Shown: one piece after another, positions 3,292 to 61,740 of the stretch | How the letters are laid out: each line of letters starts with the position of its first letter | Numbering within the stretch: position 1 is the stretch's first letter | Origin: a virus | Taxonomy: Duplodnaviria > Heunggongvirae > Uroviricota > Caudoviricetes > Schitoviridae | IMG/VR virus record: IMGVR_UViG_2645727700_000001 | Coordinates: 1-64,000 of that record | Reading direction: 5' to 3' (one strand) | Length of the DNA: 64,000 nucleotides | The notes under the pieces: model-generated | Seen by the model: only the letters and a program-made list of their open reading frames with translations | Database searches by the model: none | Told to the model about the DNA's origin: nothing | Made by a program: the position numbers and the translations under genes

Positions 3292-3745
3292 CGCTATTTG
3301 CTTTGTATTCAAGCACTTTTGGGCCTTCCTGAGTGCTTGGTTCTTTATCCTGTTATTGGTCAATGACTATCGACTGACTCAGGTAAAGCAAGAGTACAAA
3401 GATCATATCGAAACAACCGAATTTGCCATTAAGGATATGAACATCAAGTGGCAAACCAAAATGAACACTGCAGAGAAGGAATTTAATGAAAAAGTCGCTC
3501 AGCTTAATGCTGATAACGCTGTCCTCATTGATCGTGCTAACGGGTTGTCAGAGCAACTCAGTAAAGCTCAATCCAAATGGGTTACAGCTTCCAGCGAGTC
3601 CAAAACTGAGTACACCAATACCCTCAGTAACGTATTCAAACAGTGCGTCGCAGAATATAAAGACCTGGCAGTCAAAGCTGATGGACACGCACTTGATGCG
3701 ATAAGGTTAAAGCAAGCTTGGCCAACAACCGATGAACCTCCTTAA
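3272..3745 (+). CDS. i-spanin (Rz-like): N-terminal TM helix plus coiled-coil
   Basis: N-terminal hydrophobic segment FWAFLSAWFFILLLV followed by a charged coiled-coil region; overlaps the endolysin 3' end; contains an embedded lipoprotein ORF. Confidence 0.55.
   Translation: MPKLVVNAICFVFKHFWAFLSAWFFILLLVNDYRLTQVKQEYKDHIETTEFAIKDMNIKWQTKMNTAEKEFNEKVAQLNADNAVLIDRANGLSEQLSKAQSKWVTASSESKTEYTNTLSNVFKQCVAEYKDLAVKADGHALDAIRLKQAWPTTDEPP
3486..3704 (+). CDS. o-spanin (Rz1-like outer-membrane lipoprotein) embedded in another frame of the i-spanin gene
   Basis: Signal peptide with lipobox LTGC, proline-rich mature region (PASPKLSTPIP); wholly embedded in 3272..3745 in a different frame, the classic Rz/Rz1 arrangement. 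Confidence 0.55.
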   Translation: MKKSLSLMLITLSSLIVLTGCQSNSVKLNPNGLQLPASPKLSTPIPSVTYSNSASQNIKTWQSKLMDTHLMR

Positions 3746-4002
3746 AGGAGGTTCTGTTGTTCTGGGAGGCTATAAAAGGCTTCAAATGATTTAGGTTTGG
3801 TGGATGGTCCACCTTGTATAACAATAAGTAAATTCAGGATTGTATGTACTCTGACATACTCGTCATGTACAGAGATACGTCTTAGCCCATCTACCTTAGG
3901 GGCACTTTCAATTAATGAGTACAGCTTGGTTGTGTACTCATTAACAGTCTTATGAAGCCCTTTGGCTTCAATTTCTTTTGTTAGATCTTCAAATGATCGC
4001 AT
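3742..4002 (-). CDS. hypothetical protein
   Basis: 86-aa ORF convergent with the lysis cassette. Confidence 0.35.
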   Translation of the reverse strand: MRSFEDLTKEIEAKGLHKTVNEYTTKLYSLIESAPKVDGLRRISVHDEYVRVHTILNLLIVIQGGPSTKPKSFEAFYSLPEQQNLL

Positions 4003-4303
4003 GATGCACCAGATAGAATAAAAGCCCCATATAGGAGCTTTTATTGTGGTACATTACGAGTGCCTTAGCAATAAGGCTCAAGGCGACCCGTAATGGTTAG
4101 ACATTACCATAGACCTTGGAGTGTCTACGATGAACCGTGTACTCATCGTTGTCGTTACGTTGGTATTACTACTGATCAGTCAGGCAGTTTACTAACATAA
4201 CGGGGTGGGGTAGTTACAGCTACCTCACCTTCTCCAAGTAAATATAGAACAATATACCGCACAAATCAATATAACTATTTATTCTAATCTGTGTGGGTGG
4301 GGG

Positions 4304-4549
4304 TTACTTTGCAAGCTGGGTATCGTCAGCTAACCATTCTTCTTCTGTCATTTCCCCAAGATAGTTAATACTATCTAAAGTGATCGTAGTTGCATTAGGG
4401 TTTACACGCTTAGCATCTTGTAAAAATACATCAGAAATCATATTAATTGCTGCAGCACTTACATAGGGAAACTTGCGCTCAAGAACTAATGTATGGTGTG
4501 TACCGGCATCAGATGATGCTACACAAAAGTAACGATGTGATTTTGCCAT
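4304..4549 (-). CDS. hypothetical protein
   Basis: 81-aa ORF; start ATG overlaps the upstream gene's stop. Confidence 0.35.
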   Translation of the reverse strand: MAKSHRYFCVASSDAGTHHTLVLERKFPYVSAAAINMISDVFLQDAKRVNPNATTITLDSINYLGEMTEEEWLADDTQLAK

Positions 4550-5196
4550 TAGGCAGCTCCTTTAAGGGGTAGACCGAGCTGTTTATTAAGGTGGTTTTTG
4601 TCTAACAATGCAATAGGCATAGGTTGCGTTTTAACCACTGGTTCCAAATGTTCGATCAATGGCTTAACTTCTGGCCACTGTTCATATAATTTGAAGAAGT
4701 TGCCCGCAGTACGGATGATGTTGGTCATCTCCTCAGTGAACGCTTCATACTCTACGTCCAGGTCTACAAGATCTGATTGGATCTCAAGAATTTCATTGAT
4801 CTCTTTGTGGTCTACATGAAACTCAATCCATTTGTCAGACATGAAGTACGGGAATAGTTCAGCCTTTTCTAAGTAGATAACAAGATCTGACACCATATCA
4901 GTGCGTGTACGCTGTTCTGAGCCATAATAATAAGTGGTACGTTTAGCAACTTTAACCTTCTCGCCTTTGTCATCGACAATGCGTAGGTTGATTGAGCGTG
5001 TCTTTGGGAGCCAGCCGTTAGGGAGTTTCTCCATATCGCGCTTACGGTTTCCAAGAAGGATGTCATATACACGCTGAACTACAGCGTATTTCTTTTTGTT
5101 GAGTTCTGCTTTAAGTCCAGAGAACTTACGTTGTGCAAGTACGTTTACGATGTCGGTGATGTCACCTTGTTTGAATTTACGTTTTAATGGATTCAT
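4549..5196 (-). CDS. hypothetical protein
   Basis: 215-aa ORF with good coding texture. Confidence 0.45.
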   Translation of the reverse strand: MNPLKRKFKQGDITDIVNVLAQRKFSGLKAELNKKKYAVVQRVYDILLGNRKRDMEKLPNGWLPKTRSINLRIVDDKGEKVKVAKRTTYYYGSEQRTRTDMVSDLVIYLEKAELFPYFMSDKWIEFHVDHKEINEILEIQSDLVDLDVEYEAFTEEMTNIIRTAGNFFKLYEQWPEVKPLIEHLEPVVKTQPMPIALLDKNHLNKQLGLPLKGAA

Positions 5197-5208
5197 GTTT
5201 ATATCCTA

Positions 5209-5403
5209 TTACTTTGAATTTCTATAAGTTTTCTTGGCTTCTAAAAACCAATCAAGGGTTACGCAAATAGCTAGAAGCAGCACTAATGCGCTTCCAAAGA
5301 ACTCGGCACTAAAGCCCTGGGTAAAGTAAAAATAGCCTAAGCAAATTAGAGCCATTAACGTTATTAACAGTCCAAAAATGAACGAGATGTAAGGTAAGCG
5401 CAT
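5209..5403 (-). CDS. small membrane protein
   Basis: 64-aa ORF, two hydrophobic helices. Confidence 0.35.
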   Translation of the reverse strand: MRLPYISFIFGLLITLMALICLGYFYFTQGFSAEFFGSALVLLLAICVTLDWFLEAKKTYRNSK

Positions 5404-5513: not shown

Positions 5514-6335
5514 TTACTTAACGTTCAGAAGGGGAGTAGCGGAGCCGTTGCCCATAAGAACTGTATGCGTACCTTTACCTGCAAAGGCTTGTTGTGCATC
5601 AATTTCCATCTTGCGGATCAGCATTGGTGATAGAGATGCAGCAATCACACGGTTTGCATCAGCTTCGGCTTTTGCAGTGGTAAGGCGTACTTCTGCCTGT
5701 GCCAACGCTAAAGCTTTCTGACCTTCTGCACGGTTGATTTCAAATTGAACCTGAGCTGCCTGACGGATCGCTTCTTCTAAGCGTGGGTCAGTAGTTAATG
5801 AACGTACTGTCGCACCTGGAATATGGAATACGCCCGGCATTTCTTTATTCAAAGATTTCTGCAGTTCAGTCACTACATCTGCAGCAATTTCATCACGATG
5901 TTTATGGATCTCACCTGAATCAAACTTCGCTACAGCTTTGAAGATGGCTTCCTGAGCGTGACGCTTAACGTAACGTTCACCTACTACTTGGTCGCCGTCA
6001 GCGTTAAAAGATAAGTCACCTGCAAGTTTTGCAAGGGTCTCAGCCACACGGTTTGGGGCGATTGTGTAGCGCACATCAATGGCTACTTGTTGCATCGTTA
6101 CGTTGTCTTTGGTCTTTGGCTTAAGGTTTGCCAAAGGCACAGTCGTTTCACGTACACTGATTACTTTGATTGACTGGGTAAAAGTCTGATGAATACCAGG
6201 GGAAAGCTCCTCTGTTTTCATTTTGCCCAATGCCCAAGCTACGCCTACATGACCGGTTTCAACCTTTTCGTAGAAACAGCCTGTTAAGCCTAAAGTTGCG
6301 ATGCTGAGTGTGAGGATTCCAAGTAACTTTTTCAC
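5514..6335 (-). CDS. SPFH/band-7 (stomatin/prohibitin/HflKC-like) domain lipoprotein
   Basis: Signal peptide with lipobox LTGC; long Ala/Glu/Gln-rich coiled-coil typical of the SPFH C-terminal region (EINRAEGQKALALAQAEVRLTTAKAEADANRVIA). Confidence 0.65.
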   Translation of the reverse strand: MKKLLGILTLSIATLGLTGCFYEKVETGHVGVAWALGKMKTEELSPGIHQTFTQSIKVISVRETTVPLANLKPKTKDNVTMQQVAIDVRYTIAPNRVAETLAKLAGDLSFNADGDQVVGERYVKRHAQEAIFKAVAKFDSGEIHKHRDEIAADVVTELQKSLNKEMPGVFHIPGATVRSLTTDPRLEEAIRQAAQVQFEINRAEGQKALALAQAEVRLTTAKAEADANRVIAASLSPMLIRKMEIDAQQAFAGKGTHTVLMGNGSATPLLNVK

Positions 6336-6560: not shown

Positions 6561-6578
6561 TACTTACTTAAGTAAGTA
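6561..6578. promoter_or_regulatory. palindrome element TACTTACTTAAGTAAGTA upstream of minus-strand gene 6339..6521
   Basis: 18-bp perfect palindrome. Confidence 0.5.
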
Positions 6579-6975: not shown

Positions 6976-7623
6976 TTACTTTTGTGTATTGAGTTGCTTA
7001 ATAATCATTTGAGACCATGGTTCGTACGCAGAGATCTCATTTAGTAAGTCCTCTGGTGCAGACCATTTTTGATCTTGTGTTTCATCTGTTTCTGCAATTA
7101 GTTTGGTATCAACTACAACGTTAACCCACAAACCAATATGTACAGCAGATACAGGGTCATTTAGTACAGCTAAAGCTAACTGAACGCCTGAAAGATCTGG
7201 TGTAAGGAAGTAGCCAATTTCTTCGCTCAATTCACGTGTAATTGAAGCTTCGAGAGTTGCTACGGCATTAATATTGCCTTCGTCATCCAGCACCACATCC
7301 GCAATGTCAGTATGACCGCCAACGCCAATGCTACGAAGGGCTGCAAGGCCTTTCTCACCGCCGTTTGTACCGCGAGAGTATGAAAGGTACTTACCATCTT
7401 CATTCTGAATGGTTACATACCCCAAGATTTGCGGGAAAGCATGGGCGATGTCATAGTTCAAGAGGCTCTTGTCAGAGGCATCCACAACACTGCGGTTGAG
7501 AAAGTGGTAATTGTTAGCAAAAATCTTCGCTAAGTTAACTGGATAAATACCAGGTGTTTCCGGGTCAATGTGCGAGCACTTAAGTAATGCATCTAATGCT
7601 ACGCATAAAACTGCAGGTTTCAT
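6976..7623 (-). CDS. hypothetical protein
   Basis: 215-aa ORF; palindrome element about 50 bp upstream. Confidence 0.45.
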   Translation of the reverse strand: MKPAVLCVALDALLKCSHIDPETPGIYPVNLAKIFANNYHFLNRSVVDASDKSLLNYDIAHAFPQILGYVTIQNEDGKYLSYSRGTNGGEKGLAALRSIGVGGHTDIADVVLDDEGNINAVATLEASITRELSEEIGYFLTPDLSGVQLALAVLNDPVSAVHIGLWVNVVVDTKLIAETDETQDQKWSAPEDLLNEISAYEPWSQMIIKQLNTQK

Positions 7624-7665
7624 TGGTTTCTCCTATGCGGAAAGAATTGTATGTCTAAAGTATCT

Positions 7666-7688
7666 ATTTACTCAAGTAAGTAAGTAAA
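7666..7688. promoter_or_regulatory. degenerate palindrome element (TTACTCAAGTAAGTAAGTAA) upstream of minus gene 6976..7623
   Basis: imperfect copy of the family. Confidence 0.4.
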
Positions 7689-7695
7689 CAAAGGT

Positions 7696-7953
7696 TCAGA
7701 CGTTGATTTGAATGGTTTGGTTTTCGATCAAACGGATGATTAGAAAAAACGCTAAAGCGAAGGGAATAATCCAAAAAGGGAATAACAGTATCATACCTGC
7801 TTTTGCAAATAGCCTAAGCAAATCTACAACTGTATAAAATGTTTTAACCATTTGATTTAAAACTTCTTTCCCTATATCACTACATACTGTAGGATAGTTT
7901 TTCACGGCACGTTTGACTAAGTTTGATGTTTGAAAGAGTGTTGTAGGTCTCAT
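7696..7953 (-). CDS. small membrane protein
   Basis: 85-aa ORF with a hydrophobic segment ILLFPFWIIPFALAFFLII. Confidence 0.35.
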   Translation of the reverse strand: MRPTTLFQTSNLVKRAVKNYPTVCSDIGKEVLNQMVKTFYTVVDLLRLFAKAGMILLFPFWIIPFALAFFLIIRLIENQTIQINV

Positions 7954-8020
7954 ATATACCTCATACCTGCTTAGGCTATTTCAATTTAAGAAATGTTTTG
8001 TTACATTTACGATTTGTAGT

Positions 8021-8050
8021 CTTACTTGCTTACTTAATTACTTACTTGAT
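8021..8050. repeat. direct array of CTTACTT half-sites (cttacttgcttacttaattacttacttga) upstream of parA
   Basis: three direct half-site copies. Confidence 0.4.
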
Positions 8051-8062
8051 TAAATAGGTCTC

Positions 8063-8080
8063 ACAGAGAGACCGTAAAAA
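8063..8080. promoter_or_regulatory. dyad element GGTCTCAcagAGAGACC upstream of parA (putative operator), related to the downstream tandem array
   Basis: Imperfect inverted repeat 8 bp upstream of the parA start; same half-site as the 9596-9805 repeats. Confidence 0.5.
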
Positions 8081-8087
8081 TATAAAT

Positions 8088-8702
8088 ATGAAAACAGTGG
8101 TAATTGCATCCCGAAAGGGTGGGTCTGGAAAGACCACAAATGCGCGTAACTTTGCTGTTGCTTTGATAAAGCGTGGCAAGCGTGTTCTACTAATTGATAC
8201 TGACCTTCAAGGTACTCTATCAAAATGGTGGAATCGCCGTACTGTTGAAGACTTAGACTTATTAGTAGTGCCCTACAGCCAAATTAAAGAGGCTCAAGCT
8301 AGTGCACTACGTGCGGGGTATGACTATCTAATTATTGATACACCGCCGGACTCTAATGAGGCAATCGAAGGTACTGTCAGTATTGCTGACTTTATCTTGG
8401 TTCCTTGCAAAGCCAGTCCGGATGACATCGAAGCTGTTGTGGAAACGCATAAGCTGATTCAGAACGCTGGCAAAGACTTTACGTTTATTGTGAATGAGGC
8501 TAAGCCAAATACAAGCTTACTGACATTGGCATTAGAAACACTGTCACAGCTTGGGCCAATAGCACCAACACAATACAACTACATCTCACATCCTACATCT
8601 GCAGTGTCAGGCTCAACTGTAATTGATACAGAGCCAAGCTCTAAAGCTGCAGAAGATGTAGTCAAACTCACTAATTATGTACTCAGTCGCGTCGGAGAGT
8701 AA
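8088..8702 (+). CDS. parA: ParA/Soj-family partition ATPase (small, type Ib-like)
   Basis: Deviant Walker A KGGSGKTT and the LLIDTDLQGT motif (ParA D-x-D-P-Q-G signature); 204 aa without an N-terminal HTH. Confidence 0.8.
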   Translation: MKTVVIASRKGGSGKTTNARNFAVALIKRGKRVLLIDTDLQGTLSKWWNRRTVEDLDLLVVPYSQIKEAQASALRAGYDYLIIDTPPDSNEAIEGTVSIADFILVPCKASPDDIEAVVETHKLIQNAGKDFTFIVNEAKPNTSLLTLALETLSQLGPIAPTQYNYISHPTSAVSGSTVIDTEPSSKAAEDVVKLTNYVLSRVGE

Positions 8703-8704
8703 CA

Positions 8705-8950
8705 ATGGGCAAAGCACCTTTATCATTAGACAGTCTTAAACAGGTTGCTGAGCAATCTGCGCCTGCTCAAACTTCTGGCCAACCGGATGTGGTAAAATCA
8801 GATGCACCACAGGTTACAAAGCAGTTATCTGTTAAAGTAACCTTACCTGTGTATGAGCGTTTGCGTAAAGCTGCTTATACGCTTGAAATGTCGCATCAGG
8901 ACATTGGTTCGGATGCTGTTGCGGAATGGCTAACGAAAAATGGATTCTAA
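8705..8950 (+). CDS. small protein downstream of parA (candidate ParG/ParB-like centromere-binding partner)
   Basis: 81-aa ORF, 3 bp after parA, overlaps the next gene; position typical for a type Ib partner. Confidence 0.45.
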   Translation: MGKAPLSLDSLKQVAEQSAPAQTSGQPDVVKSDAPQVTKQLSVKVTLPVYERLRKAAYTLEMSHQDIGSDAVAEWLTKNGF

Positions 8951-9596
8951 TTTAGACGAACTTAAAGCACAGACTCAGTTCTTTCACCTATTTAAAGCCA
9001 TGTACGATTCAGGTGACGTGGCTCAAATGGGTTCACACGCGTTTAACGTGTATTGCTATATAAAGTCATGTGTTAATTACGAACGTCCAGATGCATTTCC
9101 GTCAATCGAGACGATCTGTAAAGCAACTGGCGTTTCTAGGGCTAATGTATTCAGATGTATTCCTGTCTTAGTAGAGATGGGCTACCTCACAAAGAATACA
9201 TCGGGTAGACATACAATCTACAGAGTGTGTGAGAGGATACCCATGTTAGATGAAAACGGCGATGTACAGGCTACAGCATCTTGGGAATACATCCCTAAAT
9301 ACGCTGTAAAAGCTGTATCAGAACTTAAAGAATTGATTCAATCATCAGGTGATGTTAATGCAGCTCGCTACATTCACATCGAACACTTACAAGTTATCGT
9401 ATCCAATATTGAATCTGGCGGCGTACAAAACATTGTAGCCGGGGACAATATTGATAATAGTACTACCAATGCTATTCATGTCACGCGTGAAAGCCAGACA
9501 CTTGAAGATCATTTAAATGACCTGGCACAGCAGGGCGATGGTTCTACTGCAGCTAAAATAAAGCGCGGTATTAAGAAGAAAACTTCAACTGGATAG
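8940..9596 (+). CDS. winged-helix/HTH DNA-binding protein (candidate Rep initiator or centromere-binding protein)
   Basis: HTH-like segment ICKATGVSRANVFRCIPVLVEMGYL; stop codon abuts the first of seven dyad repeats. Confidence 0.5.
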   Translation: MDSNLDELKAQTQFFHLFKAMYDSGDVAQMGSHAFNVYCYIKSCVNYERPDAFPSIETICKATGVSRANVFRCIPVLVEMGYLTKNTSGRHTIYRVCERIPMLDENGDVQATASWEYIPKYAVKAVSELKELIQSSGDVNAARYIHIEHLQVIVSNIESGGVQNIVAGDNIDNSTTNAIHVTRESQTLEDHLNDLAQQGDGSTAAKIKRGIKKKTSTG

Positions 9597-9805
9597 GTCT
9601 CATGGTGAGACCTTTTCTTTTTCTATTAGTCTCACAGTGAGACTGATGCATTTTTGATTGGTCTCACTGTGATACCTATTGATTTATAAAAATAGGTCTC
9701 AGTATGATACCTATAAGTAGAGTCTAGTCTCAGTGTGAGACTGAGTACCCTTAAAAGGGTCTCTATGTGAGACTAATTAAGCCTTAATAGGTCTCACTGT
9801 GATAC
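9596..9805. repeat. array of seven about 17-bp dyad repeats RGTCTCA-N3-TGAKACY spaced about 30-33 bp apart (putative iterons or partition centromere)
   Basis: Copies near 9596, 9628, 9659, 9696, 9726, 9762, 9789; 6-7 bp stems with 3-nt spacers; the first copy is followed by TTTTCTTTTTC. Confidence 0.7.
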
Positions 9806-9918
9806 CCTAAAAAGAACTCTTTAGATTCTAAATTTAAAAAGATCTTTTTATGGTCTAGAACGGTTAAAATCTGTGGATAAAAATACCTACTTATCCACAA
9901 AATGCAGGAAATCTTAAA

Positions 9919-10104
9919 ATGGCTAAATTCCACGAACCAATTGCTTACTTGAACGAAGAAGAATTAGAACGAGCAATTCAATGGGGTACAATCCAACGTG
10001 AAGAAGCTCAGAAATCAGAAGATCAAATTTGGGATGAGTACGATGATCGTATTCTCCATACTTTGAATTCAAAACTTAAACAAATGCGAGGCTCTGTAGC
10101 TTGA
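9919..10104 (+). CDS. small hypothetical protein flanked by DnaA boxes
   Basis: 61-aa ORF with SD-like AGGAAAT upstream; may be non-coding origin DNA. Confidence 0.3.
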   Translation: MAKFHEPIAYLNEEELERAIQWGTIQREEAQKSEDQIWDEYDDRILHTLNSKLKQMRGSVA

Positions 10105-10150
10105 CTTAATCTTTGATTACAGTAGACTTGTTTTAAAGGTTAAATCCTTT

Positions 10151-10192
10151 AATTGGTCTGAAAAACCCTAGGAGCGAAGGCTTTTAGGGTTT
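10151..10192 (+). terminator. hairpin AAACCCTA...TAGGGTTT followed by TTTTCTTT
   Basis: stem-loop plus T-run after ORF 9919..10104. Confidence 0.5.
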
Positions 10193-10488
10193 TTCTTTAT
10201 GTATCGCAGTTAACATAATGTGCGTTATGCGAAATGTAATTACACAATTATCCACAATACTTTTTGAAAACAACAAGTTATGAATTCAAAAACTTTTTTA
10301 TGAAAACTATACTTATCCACAGTTGGAACATTTTGCCAATCAACGTGAATACCAAGCTTTAATTTGGCACTCACTATGCGTTGTAAACAGATTTTTATAG
10401 TACGAAGCTGAATGGCCACTGGTACACTTACGAGCACGTTCAGCAGCCGAAGGACTTAATACAATTGGTTTACCGCAGAGTTTACAGC

Positions 10489-10665
10489 TCATTGCCTTAC
10501 CCCACATTTGATACAGTCAAACTCACGGATGTCGTAAGATTCTGACCAGTTAATACGGCGATTGAAGATATGGACTATCCTTCCAAAATCACCACAGGCT
10601 TTACATGGTTTCTGTGTCATCACTTCAACCGATCTGACGAAGCGTTTTCTTGCTTTGGTGAACAT
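10489..10665 (-). CDS. small zinc-ribbon protein (CxxC...CxxC), missed by the 60-aa ORF cutoff
   Basis: Manual translation from the ATG at 10665: MFTKARKRFVRSVEVMTQKPCKACGDFGRIVHIFNRRINWSESYDIREFDCIKCGVRQ; strong SD AAGGAG 8 nt upstream; stop overlaps another small Cys-rich ORF (about 10340-10492). Confidence 0.4.
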   Translation of the reverse strand: MFTKARKRFVRSVEVMTQKPCKACGDFGRIVHIFNRRINWSESYDIREFDCIKCGVRQ

Positions 10666-10677
10666 GGAAGGTCTCCT

Positions 10678-11055
10678 TTAAACCGTTTGATCGGGCAACG
10701 CCCGATTCTTAATTACATTATGCTTCACTAGAACGCCGTACAGCTCCTCTTGGAGAGCTTCTGGCGTGTTCCATACATTCATACCCCTTAAAGCATTAAA
10801 CGTTACTGAGGCCCGTTTAGCGCGATCTTTGGCTAAGTTGTAGAGGGTTGCTGTGGCATAGGCATAATGCGCATCTGGGTGTCCGTACTTACGTGGTTTC
10901 ATTCGAGCTGTTTCAATACTGATTGGACGTTCTAAACCATGTAAGTAAATCCACTTATGTCCTGCAGACTTGACGACATAATAAGTACCTTCGATACATA
11001 CAGAATCGCCACGCTTGAGCTTCTTAAGCTCCTCGCTGTGCATGTGGTAAGTCAT
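10678..11055 (-). CDS. hypothetical protein
   Basis: 125-aa ORF. Confidence 0.45.
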   Translation of the reverse strand: MTYHMHSEELKKLKRGDSVCIEGTYYVVKSAGHKWIYLHGLERPISIETARMKPRKYGHPDAHYAYATATLYNLAKDRAKRASVTFNALRGMNVWNTPEALQEELYGVLVKHNVIKNRALPDQTV

Positions 11056-11336
11056 TAACCTGGTATCTCCTCTGCACGGATCTCCCAGATAAAGTCACGG
11101 ATACCACGATCAAAGGCACGGCCTTCCTGCGTATCACCATCAAAACCTACAGAACGACGTTCCAGAAAATCTAAGGTGCATGTGGTTGGATTTCCTACAT
11201 AAACGGTCTTAGCAAACTCATAACCACGCTTACGAGCCTTCTCAAGTTTGGATTCAGGCACAGGCTGAGCCATGAGCCAGCCAAGGAATATCAATGCCCC
11301 TAGAATTACCAGAGGCGTAAAGTGAGCTATGTTCAT
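11055..11336 (-). CDS. hypothetical secreted or membrane-anchored protein
   Basis: 93-aa ORF, N-terminal hydrophobic helix; stop-start overlaps both neighbours. Confidence 0.4.
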   Translation of the reverse strand: MNIAHFTPLVILGALIFLGWLMAQPVPESKLEKARKRGYEFAKTVYVGNPTTCTLDFLERRSVGFDGDTQEGRAFDRGIRDFIWEIRAEEIPG

Positions 11337-11605
11337 CAGTCGACAACCACTGTAGGACGTTTACGTGGACTGCATTTTTGGTAATGTTTAACCAGTTCTA
11401 TAAGCATCTGAAATCTAAACATGATGTTGTGATTAAGAATGAACTCATTACGAATCCAAAAAGCAGTTTCATTGATGCTACGGCCATCTTGAGGGTTAAC
11501 AAGGTGTACCATTTCCTTGATTTTTATCTTATGGTGCCGGTTAGCAATGCTCAGGAATTGCTTTACAGAAGTTGCATCATCTAAACGTTCACGGTACTTC
11601 ATCAA
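11336..11605 (-). CDS. hypothetical protein (paralog of 11732..11995)
   Basis: N-terminal MKYRERL shared with the next upstream ORF. Confidence 0.4.
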   Translation of the reverse strand: MMKYRERLDDATSVKQFLSIANRHHKIKIKEMVHLVNPQDGRSINETAFWIRNEFILNHNIMFRFQMLIELVKHYQKCSPRKRPTVVVD

Positions 11606-11731
11606 TCGTTCTCCATGTTTATGAATGCACCTTCGATAACGCTATCAATGTCGCTAATTAAGTTCTCTTTAAAGATCTCCTGTTCGCCTGGCGATAGCTC
11701 AAACCATTGGTCGTTGTGATACTTACTTAGG

Positions 11732-11995
11732 TCAATTGTCAGGATGTTCCCGACTTGAGTGATAATGCTCATATAGTTCCTTAATTAGTTGTTCCCGAAG
11801 GAATATTCCTTCACATTCAATGAACATCTCGCGGATGTAACGATAAGTTCTCACACCCCAAGCATGGTCTTTACCTAGTTGGGACATGAGCTGTTTTGCG
11901 AGTGCTTTATGTTTGGTATTGGCTGTCCGAAAGAACACAGCTTTTGAATCGATTTGCCCTAGCTTTTCTCGGTACTTCATAGCACCTGTGACCAA
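11732..11995 (-). CDS. hypothetical protein (paralog of 11336..11605)
   Basis: 87-aa ORF; MKYREKL N-terminus. Confidence 0.4.
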   Translation of the reverse strand: MVTGAMKYREKLGQIDSKAVFFRTANTKHKALAKQLMSQLGKDHAWGVRTYRYIREMFIECEGIFLREQLIKELYEHYHSSREHPDN

Positions 11996-12396
11996 TCCAG
12001 TTTCTCGCCAGATGCGACACGTCTGCGGTCAGGGGGTAGATACATGTGCTTCAAAGCATTTTCTGAGTGGTACATGTAATTACCGATGTCAGTAAGAATT
12101 TTGAATAGCGGGGGCAAGTCCTTGTCTGCGTAAGGCAGTACCTCTACGATGGTTGCGTTTGTCCATTCTCGGGGATGTGCGGTATGTAGTACGGTCCCAC
12201 GTTCATAGGTATTACACTTGTACATCACTGCAGCGTCAAAGCATTGATCGAGATGAAGCCATACAGGTACACCATGTAACTTTGTTGGGTGACGTTTCTC
12301 CTCGTCAGATACCCAATCCACTACAGGCTCAGGGTCAATTGTTCCATCTGGATTAGTACTGCCAGTTGGTGTGCCTAAATCATTGGTTTGTTTCAT
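11977..12396 (-). CDS. hypothetical protein
   Basis: 139-aa ORF. Confidence 0.45.
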   Translation of the reverse strand: MKQTNDLGTPTGSTNPDGTIDPEPVVDWVSDEEKRHPTKLHGVPVWLHLDQCFDAAVMYKCNTYERGTVLHTAHPREWTNATIVEVLPYADKDLPPLFKILTDIGNYMYHSENALKHMYLPPDRRRVASGEKLDWSQVL

Positions 12397-12743
12397 TACA
12401 CACCTCGGATAACGATGTTGCTTATGCTGCCTGTGTAGCTGTAATGAATATCCACTTGTAAGCCTGCGACCTCAGGGTGGATGTCTAACTGCTTCCGGAA
12501 CTCTTTCTCGCAACGTTCACGTGATTCACGTGTCATGTTGTCAATCAGTACTTTCCGTACATCGTCGTTGTAGGCTGAAAGGAAGTTTAAGAAGCCCCCT
12601 TGGTAGTCATTACCACTGGCCACAAAGTCTGCGATTGCCTGACCTACGAGGTCTGTAGGCGTAAGAAACTTACTTCGATCTGCCAGGTTGCAAGTCACGT
12701 AATCGTGCTCAGGGCTTTGATGTGTGCGTACGATTGCTCCCAT
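12396..12743 (-). CDS. hypothetical protein
   Basis: 115-aa ORF; TAATG coupling with the upstream small ORF. Confidence 0.45.
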   Translation of the reverse strand: MGAIVRTHQSPEHDYVTCNLADRSKFLTPTDLVGQAIADFVASGNDYQGGFLNFLSAYNDDVRKVLIDNMTRESRERCEKEFRKQLDIHPEVAGLQVDIHYSYTGSISNIVIRGV

Positions 12744-12903
12744 TAACCAAGCTCCGTTACAGTAATTGCAGCAATGATCGAGTTCCCATTGTTTACTGCG
12801 ATGCTGCAGCCTAGAACGACATGCGTGTCATTAATAGATTCGGTGTATTCGTTAATACGTGCCTGTAGTACTACAGGGTCAGGTGCTCGGATGATTTTGA
12901 TCA

Positions 12904-13239
12904 TTAGATGATTCCTTCTAATTGCTTAAGTGCGATTTGATGTACTTGATCGAGACGGGTATAGCCGTAATGCCATTTTCCACTGTGATAAATATCAAAG
13001 GTGTACGTCTGGTCGTCATCGTTGTAGTTGATGTCTACGATCACATTTGGGTGATATTCAATGCGTTCGCCGTTGAATTTGGTGAGAACTTCTCCGGAGC
13101 CGAGACCGCAAAGTTCTCGGAAAGATTGGGCGAAGGGTCTTTCGTTTGTTTCCATGGGGAAATTCACGTCCTGTTTTATATCGGTAATTGCGTATGACTC
13201 GGTACACGGTGGCAATGCCAACATCGTGTTTCCGTGCAA
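12904..13239 (-). CDS. hypothetical protein; possibly the C-terminal part of a frameshifted gene with 13058..13330
   Basis: 111-aa ORF overlapping an HTH-like ORF in another frame. Confidence 0.4.
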   Translation of the reverse strand: MHGNTMLALPPCTESYAITDIKQDVNFPMETNERPFAQSFRELCGLGSGEVLTKFNGERIEYHPNVIVDINYNDDDQTYTFDIYHSGKWHYGYTRLDQVHQIALKQLEGII

Positions 13240-13330
13240 TCACTGCTTTATGTGTGGTTATGTCAGATAGGAATGTATTTAGAATTGCTTCGGCAATTTC
13301 CGGAGCTAATGGTTTAAAAGCTGGTTGCAT
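13058..13330 (-). CDS. HTH-like N-terminal segment; C-terminal half looks out-of-frame
   Basis: Residues 30-50 (IARKHDVGIATVYRVIRNY) look like an HTH; after about residue 55 the sequence becomes low-complexity basic junk while the overlapping frame becomes protein-like. Confidence 0.3.
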   Translation of the reverse strand: MQPAFKPLAPEIAEAILNTFLSDITTHKAVIARKHDVGIATVYRVIRNYRYKTGREFPHGNKRKTLRPIFPRTLRSRLRRSSHQIQRRTH

Positions 13331-13332
13331 AA

Positions 13333-13356
13333 AAAATGGGGCTAAATAGCCCCACT
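13333..13356 (-). terminator. hairpin GGGGCT-AAAT-AGCCCC with TTTTTT tail on the minus strand
   Basis: downstream of minus gene 13369..13704. Confidence 0.55.
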
Positions 13357-13368
13357 CCCTTGTGTTAA

Positions 13369-13704
13369 TTAATACCTCCCATTCAATGAATCGAACCTAG
13401 CCCGTAAGGCATCTTCAAGGTAATGGAACATGCGGCTACCAATGTGGGCTGCAGTCACTACGAAGATTGGTTCAGTGATCCATGCATAGAGAGAACCTTT
13501 GATTACCGGGTACAAGTCATAAGCCAAGTACCCAACAAGCAAGGCAGAAGCGTACTCAGTAACTATCCATAGTTTTGAGACTCGCTCTTGCTTTAGGATC
13601 TGCCTTCCAATGGAAATCAGACCTGAAACGGAACTGATAATTAAGGCCCCCAAGAGGGCCACATAGTCAGTCTGGTGTTGTAGCGGCATCCTTGCTGCTC
13701 CCAT
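13369..13704 (-). CDS. membrane protein with three predicted TM helices
   Basis: 111-aa ORF with three hydrophobic segments. Confidence 0.45.
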   Translation of the reverse strand: MGAARMPLQHQTDYVALLGALIISSVSGLISIGRQILKQERVSKLWIVTEYASALLVGYLAYDLYPVIKGSLYAWITEPIFVVTAAHIGSRMFHYLEDALRARFDSLNGRY

Positions 13705-13755
13705 TTGACAATAGTGAGCAGCATTCTAATTGCATTAAAGAATCGATACTAAATT

Positions 13756-13980
13756 TCATCCACGGTAGTTGCGCTGGGCATACTGGCGTAGGACGTTGTG
13801 TTTAATAATCTGGTTTAGTTTGGTGGCGTATTTGATAGCGTCTTGCTTATCATAAATTACACCCCCACCTAGTTTGGCCCATCCCTTACGGCCTTTGATT
13901 TCAACAACATGCAGTTCGGCATTACCTACAATGATGTTGTCGGTTGTGTACTTGTATTTACTCGGATCTCGGAAGTACAT
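13756..13980 (-). CDS. hypothetical protein
   Basis: 74-aa ORF; palindrome element about 50 bp upstream. Confidence 0.4.
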   Translation of the reverse strand: MYFRDPSKYKYTTDNIIVGNAELHVVEIKGRKGWAKLGGGVIYDKQDAIKYATKLNQIIKHNVLRQYAQRNYRG

Positions 13981-14013: not shown

Positions 14014-14044
14014 TCATAGTTTTACTTATTTACTTACTCAAGTA
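14014..14044. promoter_or_regulatory. palindrome-family element (TTACTTATTTACTTACTCAAGTAAGTAAGTAA) upstream of minus gene 13756..13980
   Basis: extended imperfect palindrome. Confidence 0.45.
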
Positions 14045-14077
14045 AGTAAGTAAATAAAGTTTTTAAATGTTCAAAGA

Positions 14078-14543: not shown

Positions 14544-14567
14544 ACTTACTTGCTTAAGTAAGTATTT
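14544..14567. promoter_or_regulatory. palindrome-family element with 10-bp arms ATACTTACTT/AAGTAAGTAT and 4-nt spacer; overlaps the DNAP stop codon
   Basis: perfect 10-bp inverted repeat. Confidence 0.45.
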
Positions 14568-17202
14568 AACTGTAATAAGCTCTGTGCCCTTCAATGCATG
14601 TCTTCTTAATGGTTTGAGCGTCAGCATTGTTTGGCAATGTGATCTCATTGGCCCATGAAGGATGGAAGATGTCGAGAGCAGCTCCAAGTTTTACCTTGTC
14701 ATGCTGGATCTCTGGCAATTCTTGCCATGACATACACTCGATAAGGTTCTTGTTTGCCCAAGTTACAATCTCTAAATCATCACGGATGATGAGATAGATT
14801 GCATCATGGATAAGTGCTACAGGGAAAATGTCCTGACGATATGGAGAGTTCCATACGCGGTTCATAAACTCTACAGCAGCTCGGTTGTTCAGCATTCCGT
14901 ATGACTGACCTAATGCATTACCTGCAGTACGTCCCTCTGCCTCAGCCTCTTTCAAAGTCTTAGAGTTACCCAAGATTGATTGCTTAAGCAGTGGTGTACG
15001 TACACGTAATCCGAAGGCTACCTCAACATAACCAGTCTTACAGGCTTTCTTAAGCTTTTCAGCTACCCAAGCATCTGAAACTTTGTACATGTCGTGGTAT
15101 GACTTCTCAATCTGTTTAGCCACTCCCGGAGCGAAACCACAGTTCTTAACAAGAGTTGTCCACGTTCCCTGGTACGTCAATGCGAAGGTTGGTGCCTTAG
15201 ATTTTTGACGCAATTCAGGGTACTTCTTCTTAATCGAGTTAACGATAAATACTCGCTCTTTTGTGTCAGTCGTACTTGCGTACGCTTCCACAATGTCAGG
15301 CATCTGTTCAGGGAAGTAATAGAATGCACGTAGACAGTGACCGTCATATCCCTCAAGGTAAACCTTAAGTTTGTTCGGGTCTTTTGTGGTTAATGCAGAG
15401 ATGTAGTCTTCAAGCGAGTTGAAGTCGGCACCCCCGAATAGGAAGCCCTTAGGTGGTCTGAAACATGTCTTAACTGGTTTACCAAACTTAGAACCAGAAG
15501 GTAAATTCTGAAGGTTTGGACCAGATGAAGACAATCGACCGGAGACTGTTCCGCCTAAGTTGAAGTTCCCATGTAGCCAAGCAGTTCCATCAGCTTTAAG
15601 TACTGCCCCTTCAAAGGCCGGTACGAACGAACTGATGATCTTGTCTACCTTAGCCAAGTCATGCAAAGCATTGAGGAGTTCAATTTTAGTTGGATCATCT
15701 GTATGGTTTAGCAGCTTCTCTAATACGTCTGCACCCGTAGCAGGTTCTTTGGTTTTGGTACGGTCTAGTACAGGTAATGTCATTACATTGTAAAGCAGTA
15801 TGCCCAACTGTTTTGGACTGCCCGGGTTGAACTTCATGTCACAGAAATCCTCAACGGTCTTCTGTTTAATGTGCTCACCGTTGTACTTAACCACAGCATC
15901 CAATTGCATACGTTTAAGAGTCAAATCTACCCATTGAGACTTCTCAATTACAGCAAGGCATTCCTCCTGTTCTGCAACAAGGGTTCGCTTAAGATTCTGT
16001 ACCTCATCAGCGTCCATAGGCATCCCAATAAGCTCCATCTGGATGATGACCTTAAGGGTTGGTAGGAACTGCTCTTTATACAGCTTCTCTTGCTGATCTC
16101 GAACCATGATTGGGTAATACTTTTCGTATACATACCAAGTGGATAAGCAGTCGACTAGGTTGTAACGAAGCAGGTCGTCATAAGGAATTTTACGAATGTC
16201 AGCAATATCAGACTGTGCCCAATTCCCTGCAAATTCATGTGCATTATCCTTTAAAGATAGGAAATTGCCTGCTGCAGAGTTGGTGGCCAGATAAATGATG
16301 AGCTTCGTATCGTCCATGTTGCGCGTGAGGACATCTAAACCATGAAGTAGACCTTCACGATCTAGCGGATCTCGCATCCATAAACTGTAAATGAGTACCT
16401 TGATGTCATAGGCTGCATTATGGAAAACCAACTTACCTTTGTACGATTCAAGGAAGCGTCTCAGTAGCTTTTTAACTTCTGGATTGAGCTTTCTTGAGCA
16501 GTGGTCTGGGTTCATTGGATTTGCGTTCTTGGTGATTTCCACGGGGAATGCCATCCCTTCGTGTTTACTCCAAGCGAATGCACATGTACCTAATCCAGCT
16601 TCATAGAACTTCAAGCTAAAGGTCTCTGTATCACAGGTCAGGACAGGGTATTGGTGTAATCGATTCAAAGCCCATTCAATTTTTTGAAGATTGTCTGGGT
16701 AGTCCTCGTACTCAATAATCCCTTGTCCAAGTGCTGCGTATGTGCCATTTACAATGTCAGCCAGTGTTTGTACAGATAGATCTAACTTCTCGACTAGATT
16801 AGGGTTGTAGGTTAATGCAGACCAGTTAGTACCTAACGTCACTTGGAGGTATTCAAAGTCCTTAATCCCCACATTTAGGCGATAACCATAATGCGGTTCG
16901 GCCTTTGTCTGTTTAGCCAACACTTTGAAATAAGGCGCGTCAGCACAGTACAGGTACTTAATGCCCTGTTCAGCCAATACAGGTAACAGCTTCTCAAGGT
17001 ATTGCTTACACTGAGTTGCTGTGACTTTGTTGTTTGGGCCATATTCCAATGTGAAGGCAATGACACGTTCCCTAGAAATCCCTTGAACTTCTAACGGTTT
17101 AACGTAGTTGTTTAAGATTTCCTGCTCATTGAATGAGGATGGTTTGATTAGGATAGCTACATCGTAACTATCTTGCGGTTCTGCAAATAATAAATGGCGC
17201 AT
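14566..17202 (-). CDS. DNA polymerase, family A (PolI-like) with 3'-5' exonuclease domain
   Basis: Exo I motif LTCDTETFSL; Pol motif A GGADFNSLEDY; motif B RQKSKAPTFALTYQG (R-x3-K-x7-YG); motif C ALIHDAIYL; 878 aa, close to the roughly 876-aa N4 DNAP (gp39) as recalled. Confidence 0.9.
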   Translation of the reverse strand: MRHLLFAEPQDSYDVAILIKPSSFNEQEILNNYVKPLEVQGISRERVIAFTLEYGPNNKVTATQCKQYLEKLLPVLAEQGIKYLYCADAPYFKVLAKQTKAEPHYGYRLNVGIKDFEYLQVTLGTNWSALTYNPNLVEKLDLSVQTLADIVNGTYAALGQGIIEYEDYPDNLQKIEWALNRLHQYPVLTCDTETFSLKFYEAGLGTCAFAWSKHEGMAFPVEITKNANPMNPDHCSRKLNPEVKKLLRRFLESYKGKLVFHNAAYDIKVLIYSLWMRDPLDREGLLHGLDVLTRNMDDTKLIIYLATNSAAGNFLSLKDNAHEFAGNWAQSDIADIRKIPYDDLLRYNLVDCLSTWYVYEKYYPIMVRDQQEKLYKEQFLPTLKVIIQMELIGMPMDADEVQNLKRTLVAEQEECLAVIEKSQWVDLTLKRMQLDAVVKYNGEHIKQKTVEDFCDMKFNPGSPKQLGILLYNVMTLPVLDRTKTKEPATGADVLEKLLNHTDDPTKIELLNALHDLAKVDKIISSFVPAFEGAVLKADGTAWLHGNFNLGGTVSGRLSSSGPNLQNLPSGSKFGKPVKTCFRPPKGFLFGGADFNSLEDYISALTTKDPNKLKVYLEGYDGHCLRAFYYFPEQMPDIVEAYASTTDTKERVFIVNSIKKKYPELRQKSKAPTFALTYQGTWTTLVKNCGFAPGVAKQIEKSYHDMYKVSDAWVAEKLKKACKTGYVEVAFGLRVRTPLLKQSILGNSKTLKEAEAEGRTAGNALGQSYGMLNNRAAVEFMNRVWNSPYRQDIFPVALIHDAIYLIIRDDLEIVTWANKNLIECMSWQELPEIQHDKVKLGAALDIFHPSWANEITLPNNADAQTIKKTCIEGHRAYYS

Positions 17203-20120: not shown

Positions 20121-20163
20121 TACTTACTCACTTAAGTAAGTAAATTAATACTTAAGTAATTAA
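20121..20163. promoter_or_regulatory. palindrome-family elements upstream of the vWA gene
   Basis: TACTTACTCACTTAAGTAAGTAA followed by TTAATACTTAAGTAATTAA. Confidence 0.45.
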
Positions 20164-23788: not shown

Positions 23789-23808
23789 TTACTTACTTAA
23801 GTAAGTAA
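23789..23808. promoter_or_regulatory. 20-bp perfect palindrome TTACTTACTTAAGTAAGTAA upstream of the AAA+ ATPase gene
   Basis: perfect palindrome 30 bp upstream of the start. Confidence 0.5.
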
Positions 23809-24576: not shown

Positions 24577-24588
24577 TTACTTAAGTAA
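24577..24588. promoter_or_regulatory. short palindrome TTACTTAAGTAA between the RNAPII catalytic gene and the HTH gene
   Basis: 12-bp palindrome with flanking GTAAGTAG. Confidence 0.35.
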
Positions 24589-24616
24589 GTAGTAACGCCC
24601 ACAGGTTGTACTTTAA

Positions 24617-25892: not shown

Positions 25893-25919
25893 TTAAGTGT
25901 CTACTTACTCAATTACTTA
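25893..25919. promoter_or_regulatory. palindrome-family element upstream of the RNAPII catalytic subunit gene
   Basis: TACTTACTCAATTACTTAAGTAAGTAT; core 12-bp palindrome 25904-25915. Confidence 0.45.
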
Positions 25920-26037
25920 AGTAAGTATTAAGGTACAATGTAGTTATAGCAGATGGTGCATTGATCACAGAGCACCTCTACGAGCGTGTCACACTCAAAG
26001 CAATACTCGTATTGAACTGGTTGAATTGAACGGATAA

Positions 26038-29232: not shown

Positions 29233-29261
29233 CTTACCTACTCAATTGAGCAAGTAAGTAA
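29233..29261. promoter_or_regulatory. extended imperfect palindrome centred on CAATTG with TACTTAC / GTAAGTA arms
   Basis: tacttacctactcaattgagcaagtaagta. Confidence 0.4.
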
Positions 29262-29267
29262 GTAGAA

Positions 29268-29764: not shown

Positions 29765-29788
29765 ACTTACGCAATTAAGTAAGTAAGG
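29765..29788. promoter_or_regulatory. palindrome-family element TACTTACgcaattaaGTAAGTA upstream of the first rightward morphogenesis gene
   Basis: 7-bp arms. Confidence 0.4.
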
Positions 29789-30047: not shown

Positions 30048-30075
30048 TTACTTACTTACCTACTTACTTAAGTAC
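30048..30075. promoter_or_regulatory. palindrome-family element (TTACTTACTTACCTACTTACTTAAGTA) upstream of 30105 gene
   Basis: direct plus inverted half-sites. Confidence 0.4.
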
Positions 30076-33184: not shown

Positions 33185-33211
33185 TACTTACTTAAGTGAG
33201 TAAGTAAATAC
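33185..33211. promoter_or_regulatory. palindrome-family element TACTTACTTAAGTGAGTAAGTA upstream of the portal gene
   Basis: imperfect palindrome 20 bp upstream of the start. Confidence 0.45.
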
Positions 33212-35439: not shown

Positions 35440-35453
35440 GTACTTAAGTAAGT
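35430..35453. promoter_or_regulatory. 24-bp perfect palindrome ACTTACTTAAGTACTTAAGTAAGT overlapping the portal stop codon
   Basis: perfect palindrome centred on GTAC. Confidence 0.5.
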
Positions 35454-38266: not shown

Positions 38267-38298
38267 TTACTTACTTAAGTAAGTATGTAAGCAAGTAA
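38267..38298. promoter_or_regulatory. palindrome TACTTACTTAAGTAAGTA plus downstream GTAAG repeats, immediately after the MCP stop
   Basis: 18-bp perfect palindrome. Confidence 0.5.
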
Positions 38299-38356
38299 GT
38301 ACAAGGTGACTTACTTGCCTCTACAACCTCCCTCATTATTCAAAAGGAATTGAATC

Positions 38357-45618: not shown

Positions 45619-45626
45619 ATTTACTT

Positions 45627-45644
45627 ACTTACTTAAGTAAGTAT
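45627..45644. promoter_or_regulatory. palindrome TACTTACTTAAGTAAGTA between the SLT gene and the vRNAP gene
   Basis: 18-bp perfect palindrome. Confidence 0.5.
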
Positions 45645-58595: not shown

Positions 58596-58636
58596 ATTTC
58601 CTTGTCTTGAGTTAAGTAAGTAAGTAGATAAGTAAA
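58596..58636. repeat. direct array of AAGTAAGTA half-sites upstream of the SSB-like gene
   Basis: gttaagtaagtaagtagataagtaaataagtaat. Confidence 0.4.
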
Positions 58637-59471: not shown

Positions 59472-59493
59472 TTTACTTACTTAAGTAAGTAAA
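59472..59493. promoter_or_regulatory. 22-bp perfect palindrome TTTACTTACTTAAGTAAGTAAA upstream of the ATPase gene
   Basis: perfect palindrome 13 bp upstream of the start. Confidence 0.5.
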
Positions 59494-61690: not shown

Positions 61691-61714
61691 TATGATTATC
61701 CTAATTTAAGTAAG

Positions 61715-61740
61715 TAATTAAGTAAGTAAAATTAAAGAAC
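61715..61740. repeat. two direct copies of TTAAGTAAGTAA upstream of the primase-like gene
   Basis: ttaagtaagtaattaagtaagtaa. Confidence 0.4.

Follow-up and report, generated by a model that had tools for sequence, protein, structure and literature searches.

The DNA analysed here, a stretch of 64,000 nucleotides from a virus of the family Schitoviridae (referred to as the window), is an N4-like phage genome that carries plasmid-type partition and replication genes in a cassette at 8021-10321 on the + strand. The cassette is probably a self-contained plasmid maintenance module, with which the genome would persist in Acinetobacter cells outside the chromosome as a low-copy replicon, in other words a phage-plasmid. 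The genes for the virion RNA polymerase (vRNAP), terminase, portal, capsid (of the N4-gp56 type), DNA polymerase and the RNA polymerase II subunits were all intact, and this complete phage gene set shares one replicon with the replication and partition genes. The anatomy of the sequence, the family relationships of its proteins, the recurrence of the layout in relatives and the occurrence of the element in isolates and as a closed plasmid were observed directly. An earlier note on this DNA had proposed a phage-plasmid or carrier-state capability, or a DnaA-dependent origin, and the proposal is supported by the protein families, by the recurrent layout and by a closed circular sister plasmid.

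The partition genes, the predicted initiator and its dyads

Within the cassette, parA is followed by an open reading frame (ORF) of 81 aa and by a 218-aa ORF, rep, which starts inside the 81-aa ORF with an overlap of 11 nt. A non-coding stretch, a 61-aa ORF and a terminator complete the order, and the flanking gene blocks lie on the - strand. The earlier note had placed here an opposite-strand cassette of five elements, namely a ParA/Soj ATPase, a partner-sized gene of 81 aa, a winged helix-turn-helix (HTH) gene, seven tandem dyads at a spacing of about three helical turns, and four perfect DnaA boxes by an AT-rich stretch. All five were present, and the coordinates are collected in Table 1.

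For the ATPase, the deviant Walker A motif that had been described was found at residues 10-16 (KGGSGKT); the box after it, which had been given as D-x-D-P-Q-G, reads D-T-D-L-Q-G. No N-terminal HTH domain was present. Pfam CbiA, named in the earlier note as a family to search for, was matched, and the NCBIfam model NF041546 (ParA_partition) was matched over the full length (E = 4e-43) with 147 bits, which is below its cut-off of 180 bits. Matches in the PDB included ParF (4dzz, E = 1.6e-10) and McdA, and the PHROG match was PHROG 164, ‘ParA-like partition protein’.

The 81-aa protein, when searched alone, gave no family match. A family profile was made by aligning it with the equivalent ORFs of 11 other cassettes, and the best PDB match of this profile was ParG (1p94, E = 5.5e-4), followed by ribbon-helix-helix proteins of the CopG/Arc/MetJ type. 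Alignment of the family to ParG with hhalign gave a probability of 91% and an E-value of 1e-6. In all members, a variable linker joins a short N-terminal segment, in which one lysine is nearly invariant, to a C-terminal segment that would form the ribbon-helix-helix. An AlphaFold2 model of the 81-aa protein showed an extended segment-helix-helix topology, but its confidence was low (pLDDT 57) and it was not used for a fold search; the support for the ribbon-helix-helix fold is that of the sequence profile. A short ParA with a deviant Walker A motif and a predicted ribbon-helix-helix partner encoded directly downstream would place the pair among the type Ib partition systems.

The 218-aa protein, Rep, is the winged-HTH protein of the earlier note and matched Pfam HTH_36. 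No match to Pfam Rep_3 or Phage_rep_O was obtained, which places it outside the Rep_3 (WH1-WH2) family. All of its PHROG matches with a known function were replication initiators, O-like proteins or DnaD-like proteins/helicase loaders, the ‘replication initiation O-like’ families being matched weakly. Clustered at 50% identity, the family comprised 107, 343 and 1975 clusters at E thresholds of 1e-30, 1e-10 and 1e-3, respectively.

The seven dyads (GGTCTCAnnnTGAKACC, GTCTCAnnnTGAGAC) that follow rep start at 9597, 9629, 9661, 9696, 9727, 9759 and 9791, giving spacings of 32, 32, 35, 31, 32 and 32 bp. The dyad pattern had 10 matches in the window against 2.7 expected, a count reached in none of 100 shuffles. 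An eighth copy, which can be added to those in the earlier note, was found before parA and, with its flanks counted, shares 86% identity with the last iteron; the HTH_36 protein probably uses it as an autoregulatory operator. In relatives, dyad arrays were also found 3' of HTH_36 homologues in islands and other elements that have no ParA and no ParG-like gene. The half-site of the dyads covaried with the presumed recognition helix of the homologue in at least six classes, in which SRAxVFR was paired with GGTMTC, SxAQVKR with AGCTCA, SKSQVLR with GGTGTC, SKAQVHR with GGTCTC/AGTCTC, S(K/R)RQ(I/V)IN with GTGCA and TDDTVRL with CCCTTA. Because the arrays persist in islands without par genes and the half-site covaries with the helix, the dyads were read as sites of the HTH_36 protein, and they are most likely iterons bound by its dimers rather than a centromere. 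The iteron/centromere replicon described in the earlier note is supported as a partition and replication module, with this refinement.

The A+T-rich stretch that adjoins the array contains two 23-nt repeats of the TAAAAAGA type and the conserved junction CCCTAAAAAGA, a motif kept across distant loci. The DnaA box TTATCCACA occurs exactly four times in the 64 kb, always in the cassette, against 0.61 expected, and none of 100 shuffles reached four. The boxes form two pairs, with the 61-aa ORF and the terminator between them. In most lineages the stop codon of the rep homologue is followed by 3-7 dyads of lineage-specific sequence and by the junction CCCTAAAAAGA(A/G)AGA (a CTAAAAAGA stretch, A+T-rich). 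After the A+T-rich stretch there is usually a perfect or one-mismatch DnaA box, at most about 190 bp from the stop codon; by chance, a stretch of that length would contain a perfect 9-mer about 0.002-0.005 times. The layout recurs in many unrelated mobile elements, and the lineages that have it include N4-like phages and further viral contigs, pA29BJ2 (a plasmid of Polaromonas) and par-less islands in chromosomes. With tandem repeats beside an A+T-rich region and DnaA boxes, in an arrangement kept among relatives, the unit looks like an initiator gene with its origin.

Occurrence in isolates, plasmids and islands

The ParA, 81-aa and capsid proteins of the window are RefSeq proteins of Acinetobacter sp. 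A47, in which they lie on a contig of 74,273 bp. Strain A47 is a clinical soft-tissue isolate, sequenced with Illumina reads and assembled with SPAdes (PMC4358375), and the element was not mentioned in two papers on the strain. About 10 kb of the contig lies outside the window and, by comparison with the sister plasmid pRBH2-3, accounts for a ribonucleotide reductase, thyX and a large tail protein.

The plasmid pRBH2-3, from the clinical A. baumannii isolate RBH2, is a closed circular ‘plasmid’ of 75,126 bp with a complete N4-like gene set and the cassette, and a search of 72,556 plasmid records with the N4-type capsid protein gave it as the sole match. In a comparison of 11.1 kb, it was 99.2% identical to vB_IME_Ab2712, deposited as an A. 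baumannii phage from hospital sewage in a record that is marked UNVERIFIED and for which no describing paper was found. Ab2712 was itself the sole record with a Rep homologue among 50,697 phage records. The cassette proteins of pRBH2-3, taken as 90%-identity clusters, were on record on about 150 contigs, for which the listed maxima were mostly 72-77 kb; these came from Acinetobacter where the source names them, mostly A. baumannii, and some contigs may be one isolate entered in two sources. In isolates the element is on record as a closed circle for pRBH2-3 and as an assembled contig for A47, where it would likewise be an extrachromosomal replicon, and the sole N4-like plasmid record and both N4-like lineages traced to bacterial assemblies all carry the cassette. 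A serine recombinase/resolvase of about 210 aa, encoded about 5 kb from the cassette of pRBH2-3 (L038, 25189-25821), may act in multimer resolution; it had no homologue in the window.

Homologues of the HTH_36 protein were found in other N4-like contigs (L001/L019/L038, L002-L005, L006 and L031), and in L002-L005 the cassette adjoins the DNA polymerase gene. They were also found in other viral contigs (L020-L029 and L037), many with ParA and a small ORF just upstream. In one of these, the GC-rich contig L027, a module of ParA, small ORF, Rep and origin-like sequence at 7175-10546 stands directly beside a tyrosine integrase, and no match to N4-type marker proteins was obtained in the 20 kb examined. 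Some phages may carry both integration and plasmid-maintenance functions. A Paraburkholderia element with a homologue has large membrane-protein genes, possibly of a transfer system, and a ParA about 8 kb away.

The same three-gene module was present on pA29BJ2 (NZ_MN657148.1), a 104-kb plasmid of Antarctic Polaromonas, at 3514-5340 of the locus L042. Three dyads, CCCTTAnnnnTAAGGG, lie downstream and are interleaved with DnaA boxes. The plasmid has no replicon type in PLSDB, and the module may be its unrecognised replicon. Small islands in the chromosomes of Pseudomonas and Stutzerimonas (L009-L017, L035 and L036; about 8065-13900 in each locus) also contain the homologue, in the order integrase (404 aa), AlpA-like protein (79 aa), rep (about 200 aa), dyads with an A-rich stretch, and restriction-modification or defence-like cargo. 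The identities of the island genes, including large methyltransferase-like and helicase-like ORFs, were judged by eye from the translations. This distribution suggests that a class of mobile islands replicates by means of the HTH_36 family.

A comparison within the Schitoviridae had been named as a check in the earlier note. The module was absent from At2 and Presley, two N4-like phages of Acinetobacter, and only some N4-like phages carry it. The window and pRBH2-3 share 46-50% identity in the cassette proteins and 48-73% in the core genes; this similar degree of divergence argues that the cassette has been retained for long. These comparisons of sequence argue for inheritance within a sub-lineage of Acinetobacter N4-like phages, without recent insertion, rather than for a trait common to all N4-like phages. 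The cassette DNA had no match by megablast against phages or by blastn against plasmids, and as both nucleotide searches were empty, the cassette is known only at the protein level.

Proposed maintenance and the alternatives

If the cassette maintains a plasmid, the terminal repeats of the linear virion DNA would first serve to close it into a circle. Host RNA polymerase would transcribe parA, the parG-like gene and rep as a single operon, from a promoter overlapped by the (CTTA)n array and one dyad; a scan for sigma-70 promoters gave nothing convincing upstream of parA, the number of hits being no higher than in shuffles. The cassette opposes its neighbours and has a terminator of its own, which suggests that it is expressed independently of the phage cascade. 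Dimers of Rep would bind the seven dyads, which at a spacing of about three helical turns share one face of the DNA, and binding at the promoter dyad would provide autoregulation. Together with host DnaA on the adjacent boxes, the Rep complex would open the stretch of 74% A+T, and the host helicase and replisome would be recruited for theta-type replication. The ParG-like protein would bind a centromere of short-period repeats, most likely the (CTTA)n array upstream of parA, while its N-terminal tail would stimulate the ParF-like ATPase, with segregation of the copies as the outcome. The DNA binding, origin firing, segregation and silencing in this scheme were deduced from the observed features.

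The lytic cascade could stay silent without a classical repressor. The early promoters of N4 are read only by the RNA polymerase injected from the virion, and because this virion-delivered polymerase would be absent from daughter cells, the cascade would be silent there by default.

The candidate centromere is the tetramer array upstream of parA. An inverted copy of the array, a member of the dispersed palindrome family described below, lies upstream of a Nudix-like gene, and the repeats at 7664-7687 and 8034-8057 bracket an 85-aa ORF. In other cassette-bearing lineages, short-period arrays of lineage-specific sequence were likewise found upstream of parA. Based on these sequences, the (CTTA)n array is a candidate parH-like centromere and operator for the ParG-like protein, and is likelier than the dyads to be the centromere. 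As a unique centromere it was rejected, the motif being scattered over the genome. The palindrome TACTTACTTAAGTAAGTA(AA) formed 26 clusters in the window, of which 20 were intergenic, though intergenic DNA makes up 5.4% of the window. Most clusters precede a gene start by 10-60 bp, and such sites occur in the early, middle and late regions alike; the TAAGTAAGTAAA form is commoner on the + strand than its complement, irrespective of local gene direction. A different dispersed array, (CGTA)n, was found in about 15 clusters in pRBH2-3, where an (ACGY)n patch also precedes the element's own parA. No comparable over-represented motif was found in the cassette-less At2 (whole genome) or Presley (first 50 kb). 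With two genomes on each side, the dispersed palindromes could be an operator or centromere set of the ParG-like protein, and fit equally well a clade-specific promoter element.

The dispersed palindromes use the same type of tetramer as the array upstream of each element's parA, and the ParG-like protein was proposed to act on them. A repressor-free latency of the Acinetobacter N4-like phages can be tentatively outlined, as a possible though doubtful extension: the cascade would be silent by default, and the ParG-like protein would serve as global silencer or dispersed-centromere binder at about 20 intergenic tetramer palindromes (TACTTACTTAAGTAAGTA in the window, (CGTA)n in the sister). The dispersed-operator idea was also applied to the non-N4 contig L029 and was rejected there; the scattered CCAAGGAA lies immediately before start codons, and ribosome-binding-site context is its simplest explanation.

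Several observations weigh against the proposed maintenance module. The window ORFs scanned contained no repressor to account for an avoidance of lysis, and no integrase or resolvase. A Pfam scan of ten window ORFs for lysogeny genes returned only Nmad5, Band_7, DUF6378 and a ProQ-like domain and no CI-like repressor; among the ORFs scanned, a control of lysogeny by a repressor or an equivalent, as in a phage-plasmid, was not seen. A phage-sized draft contig or a circular ‘plasmid’ could come from a chronic carrier culture, and terminal repeats of the N4 type make assemblies close into circles. The assignment of the centromere to the (CTTA)n array is weakened by the lack of specificity of the motif for the parA promoter. 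The presumed iterons are dyads, unlike the direct repeats of classical iterons. Finally, in L031, a GC-rich N4-like viral contig of 63,954 bp, a rep homologue, dyads and a DnaA box lie at 9544-10350, at the end of the replication gene block and convergent with the vRNAP gene, and no ParA or ParG-like gene was found within 10 kb. Because this contig has the unit without par genes, Rep and its origin may also, or instead, serve vegetative replication.

One alternative, with which L031 agrees, is that Rep and the origin form an extra DnaA-dependent origin for vegetative or carrier-state replication, the par genes spreading genomes in chronic infection and no quiescent plasmid-prophage being formed. 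The failure to find a repressor among the ORFs scanned and the place of the cassette among replication-region genes, beside the DNA polymerase gene in L002-L005, agree with it. This alternative was nevertheless considered improbable: the cassette runs antisense to the surrounding phage genes and has its own terminator, type Ib par systems have been described in low-copy replicons, pA29BJ2, a plasmid with no known replicon type listed, carries the same module, and the sister element is a closed plasmid whose cassette was found on about 150 contigs.

It is very unlikely that the seven dyads are instead the partition centromere of the ParG-like protein, with the HTH_36 protein as a mere regulator and no replication function. 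Dyad repeats phased at about 32 bp do resemble some centromeres, one dyad copy overlaps the parA promoter, as in autoregulated par operons, and a fold search with the HTH_36 protein gave many transcription factors. Against this stand the arrays next to HTH_36 homologues in elements without either par protein, the covariation of half-site and recognition helix, the consistent junction of the arrays to an A+T-rich stretch and usually to DnaA boxes, and the replication initiators among the function-bearing PHROG matches.

That the cassette is a passenger (a selfish mini-replicon or a defence or regulatory module) with no role in persistence, and the isolate contigs contamination, is barely credible: draft assemblies can hold phage from contaminated cultures, and in some non-N4 viral contigs the cassette stands beside an integrase as accessory genes do, but the divergence of its proteins matches that of the core genes and points to long retention, only cassette-bearing lineages were found in bacterial assemblies, the sole N4-like plasmid among the 72,556 records carries the cassette, and PADLOC gave no meaningful match. 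As a defence system the cassette was rejected, the PADLOC output consisting of P-loop and winged-helix noise.

Known systems, significance and further features

The maintenance module preferred here resembles TP228 parFGH in its short ParA (about 205 aa), which lacks an N-terminal DNA-binding domain and has ParF among its closest PDB matches, in its small partner with a flexible N-terminal part and ParG as best profile match, and in a short-period repeat array upstream of the ATPase gene. It differs in its low sequence identity, the ParA of the window reaching 147 bits against the ParA_partition cut-off of 180, and in the union of its par genes with a rep gene in one operon. The parH site of TP228 consists of ACTC boxes with 4-bp spacers, whereas the window repeat is (CTTA)n with a 4-bp period and a motif that also occurs at about 20 intergenic sites.

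The predicted origin shares with the lambda ori and its O protein, and with the iteron origins that use DnaA (pSC101, P1 oriR, F oriS and RK2 oriV), an A+T-rich unwinding region adjoined by repeated initiator sites. As in the lambda ori, each site is a dyad and suits a dimer; as in iteron plasmids, DnaA boxes flank the A+T-rich region, and the extra promoter site suggests autoregulation. Unlike the lambda O and iteron initiators, the protein of the window has a single HTH_36 winged helix in 218 aa and neither Rep_3 nor Phage_rep_O, and its sites lie 3' of the gene rather than within it, at a spacing of about 32 bp; the origin role is a prediction. In the islands known as SaPI and PICI, the origin lies immediately 3' of rep, and the HTH_36 homologues in the islands found here likewise have repeats and an A+T-rich stretch 3' of rep. 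The SaPI/PICI initiators are primase-helicase fusions, whereas the Rep of the window, a small DNA-binding protein, would depend on the DnaA and DnaB of the host.

With the phage-plasmids P1, N15, SSU5 and Acinetobacter AB_1 and with the cluster A mycobacteriophages that carry parABS, the window shares a complete phage genome with replication and partition genes, extrachromosomal in isolates, and in the phage collection most ParA homologues were in phage-plasmids and cluster A mycobacteriophages. The difference lies in the backbone, which is that of the Schitoviridae with a virion RNA polymerase, and in the lack of an identified repressor. AB_1 is a siphovirus of 101-122 kb, and none of the ten defined phage-plasmid types is N4-like (two phage-plasmid surveys). 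In one abstract, an N4-like Pseudomonas phage is called obligatorily lytic (PMC11445570), and neither plasmids nor lysogeny are mentioned in the proposal of the family Schitoviridae. No description of N4-like phage-plasmids was found in the literature covered, which did not extend to subscription journals. Type Ib partition, iteron and lambda-type origins and phage-plasmids are all known; the presence of such a module in the Schitoviridae and the HTH_36 initiator family with dyad sites seem new.

Schitoviridae have been described as obligately lytic and are for that reason considered for therapy, an assumption that would change if one lineage persists as a plasmid in clinical Acinetobacter, including A. 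baumannii. Such persistence would add a phage-plasmid type on a podovirus backbone and would explain the recurrent contigs of about 74 kb in clinical assemblies as well as the ‘plasmid’ pRBH2-3. The HTH_36 protein with dyads and DnaA boxes appears to be a compact replicon outside current typing, neither of the two carrier plasmids having a listed replicon type, and is relevant to plasmid typing and to the replication of the Pseudomonas and Stutzerimonas islands. Repressor-free latency, if true, would give a family held to be strictly lytic a new way of becoming temperate, and would define an uncharacterised initiator family (HTH_36, dyad iterons and DnaA boxes) common to phages, plasmids and genomic islands. 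The element is a concrete system for asking how a phage that depends on a virion-delivered polymerase becomes latent.

Table 1. Positions in the window of the cassette features, the dispersed palindromes and two N4-like core genes
Feature	Position	Strand	Remarks
Inverted copy of the (CTTA/TAAG)n array	7664-7687		Upstream of a Nudix-like gene; 24 nt, 92% complementary to 8034-8057
Tandem tetramer array (CTTA/CTTG)	8021-8052	+	6.8 copies, period 4 (TRF); just upstream of parA
Eighth dyad (GGTCTCACAGAGAGACC)	8058-8072 (8054-8076 with flanks)		16 bp before the parA start codon
parA, short ParF-like (type Ib) ATPase, 204 aa	8088-8702	+	Pfam CbiA, AAA_31, VirC1
ParG-like centromere-binding protein (predicted), 81 aa	8705-8950	+	Directly downstream of parA; profile match to ParG
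rep, winged-helix protein, probable replication initiator, 218 aa	8940-9596	+	Pfam HTH_36, E = 4e-10
Array of seven 17-bp dyads	9593-9809		Putative iterons
A+T-rich stretch, probable DNA-unwinding element (predicted)	9806-9871		66 bp; 74.2% A+T against 56.1% in the window
DnaA box pair 1, inverted, perfect	9872-9880 (-), 9891-9899 (+)
61-aa ORF, conserved, acidic	9919-10104	+	Separates the two pairs of DnaA boxes
Intrinsic terminator closing the cassette	10160-10195	+	16-pair stem, then a T run
DnaA box pair 2, perfect	10248-10256 (+), 10313-10321 (+)		Extended flanking similarity to the box at 9891
DNA polymerase	14566-17202
Virion RNA polymerase (vRNAP), 3403 aa	45665-55876
Dispersed TACTTACTTAAGTAAGTA sites, first part	2733-2748, 6562-6577, 7674-7685, 14040-14051, 14544-14563, 20134-20141, 23791-23806, 24583-24590, 25919-25926, 29252-29263
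Dispersed TACTTACTTAAGTAAGTA sites, second part	29777-29784, 30050-30069, 33186-33193, 35430-35453, 38269-38316, 45623-45642, 58614-58625, 59475-59490, 61708-61727

The 61-aa ORF gave no family match in Pfam, NCBIfam or PHROGs. A homologue (39% identity) was found at the same place in L006, and an ORF of similar size (67 aa) is located there in Ab2712. An Rfam search returned no RNA family in the window and only a tRNA in relatives.

Two accessory genes on the - strand, at 4549-5196 and 5514-6335, belong to a variable block adjoining the cassette; one encodes an Nmad5 (nucleotide-modification-associated) protein and the other an SPFH/Band 7 protein with a lipoprotein-like N-terminus. Neither had a homologue in pRBH2-3 or in the first 50 kb of Presley; for the gene at 5514-6335, a weak match of 27% was seen in At2.

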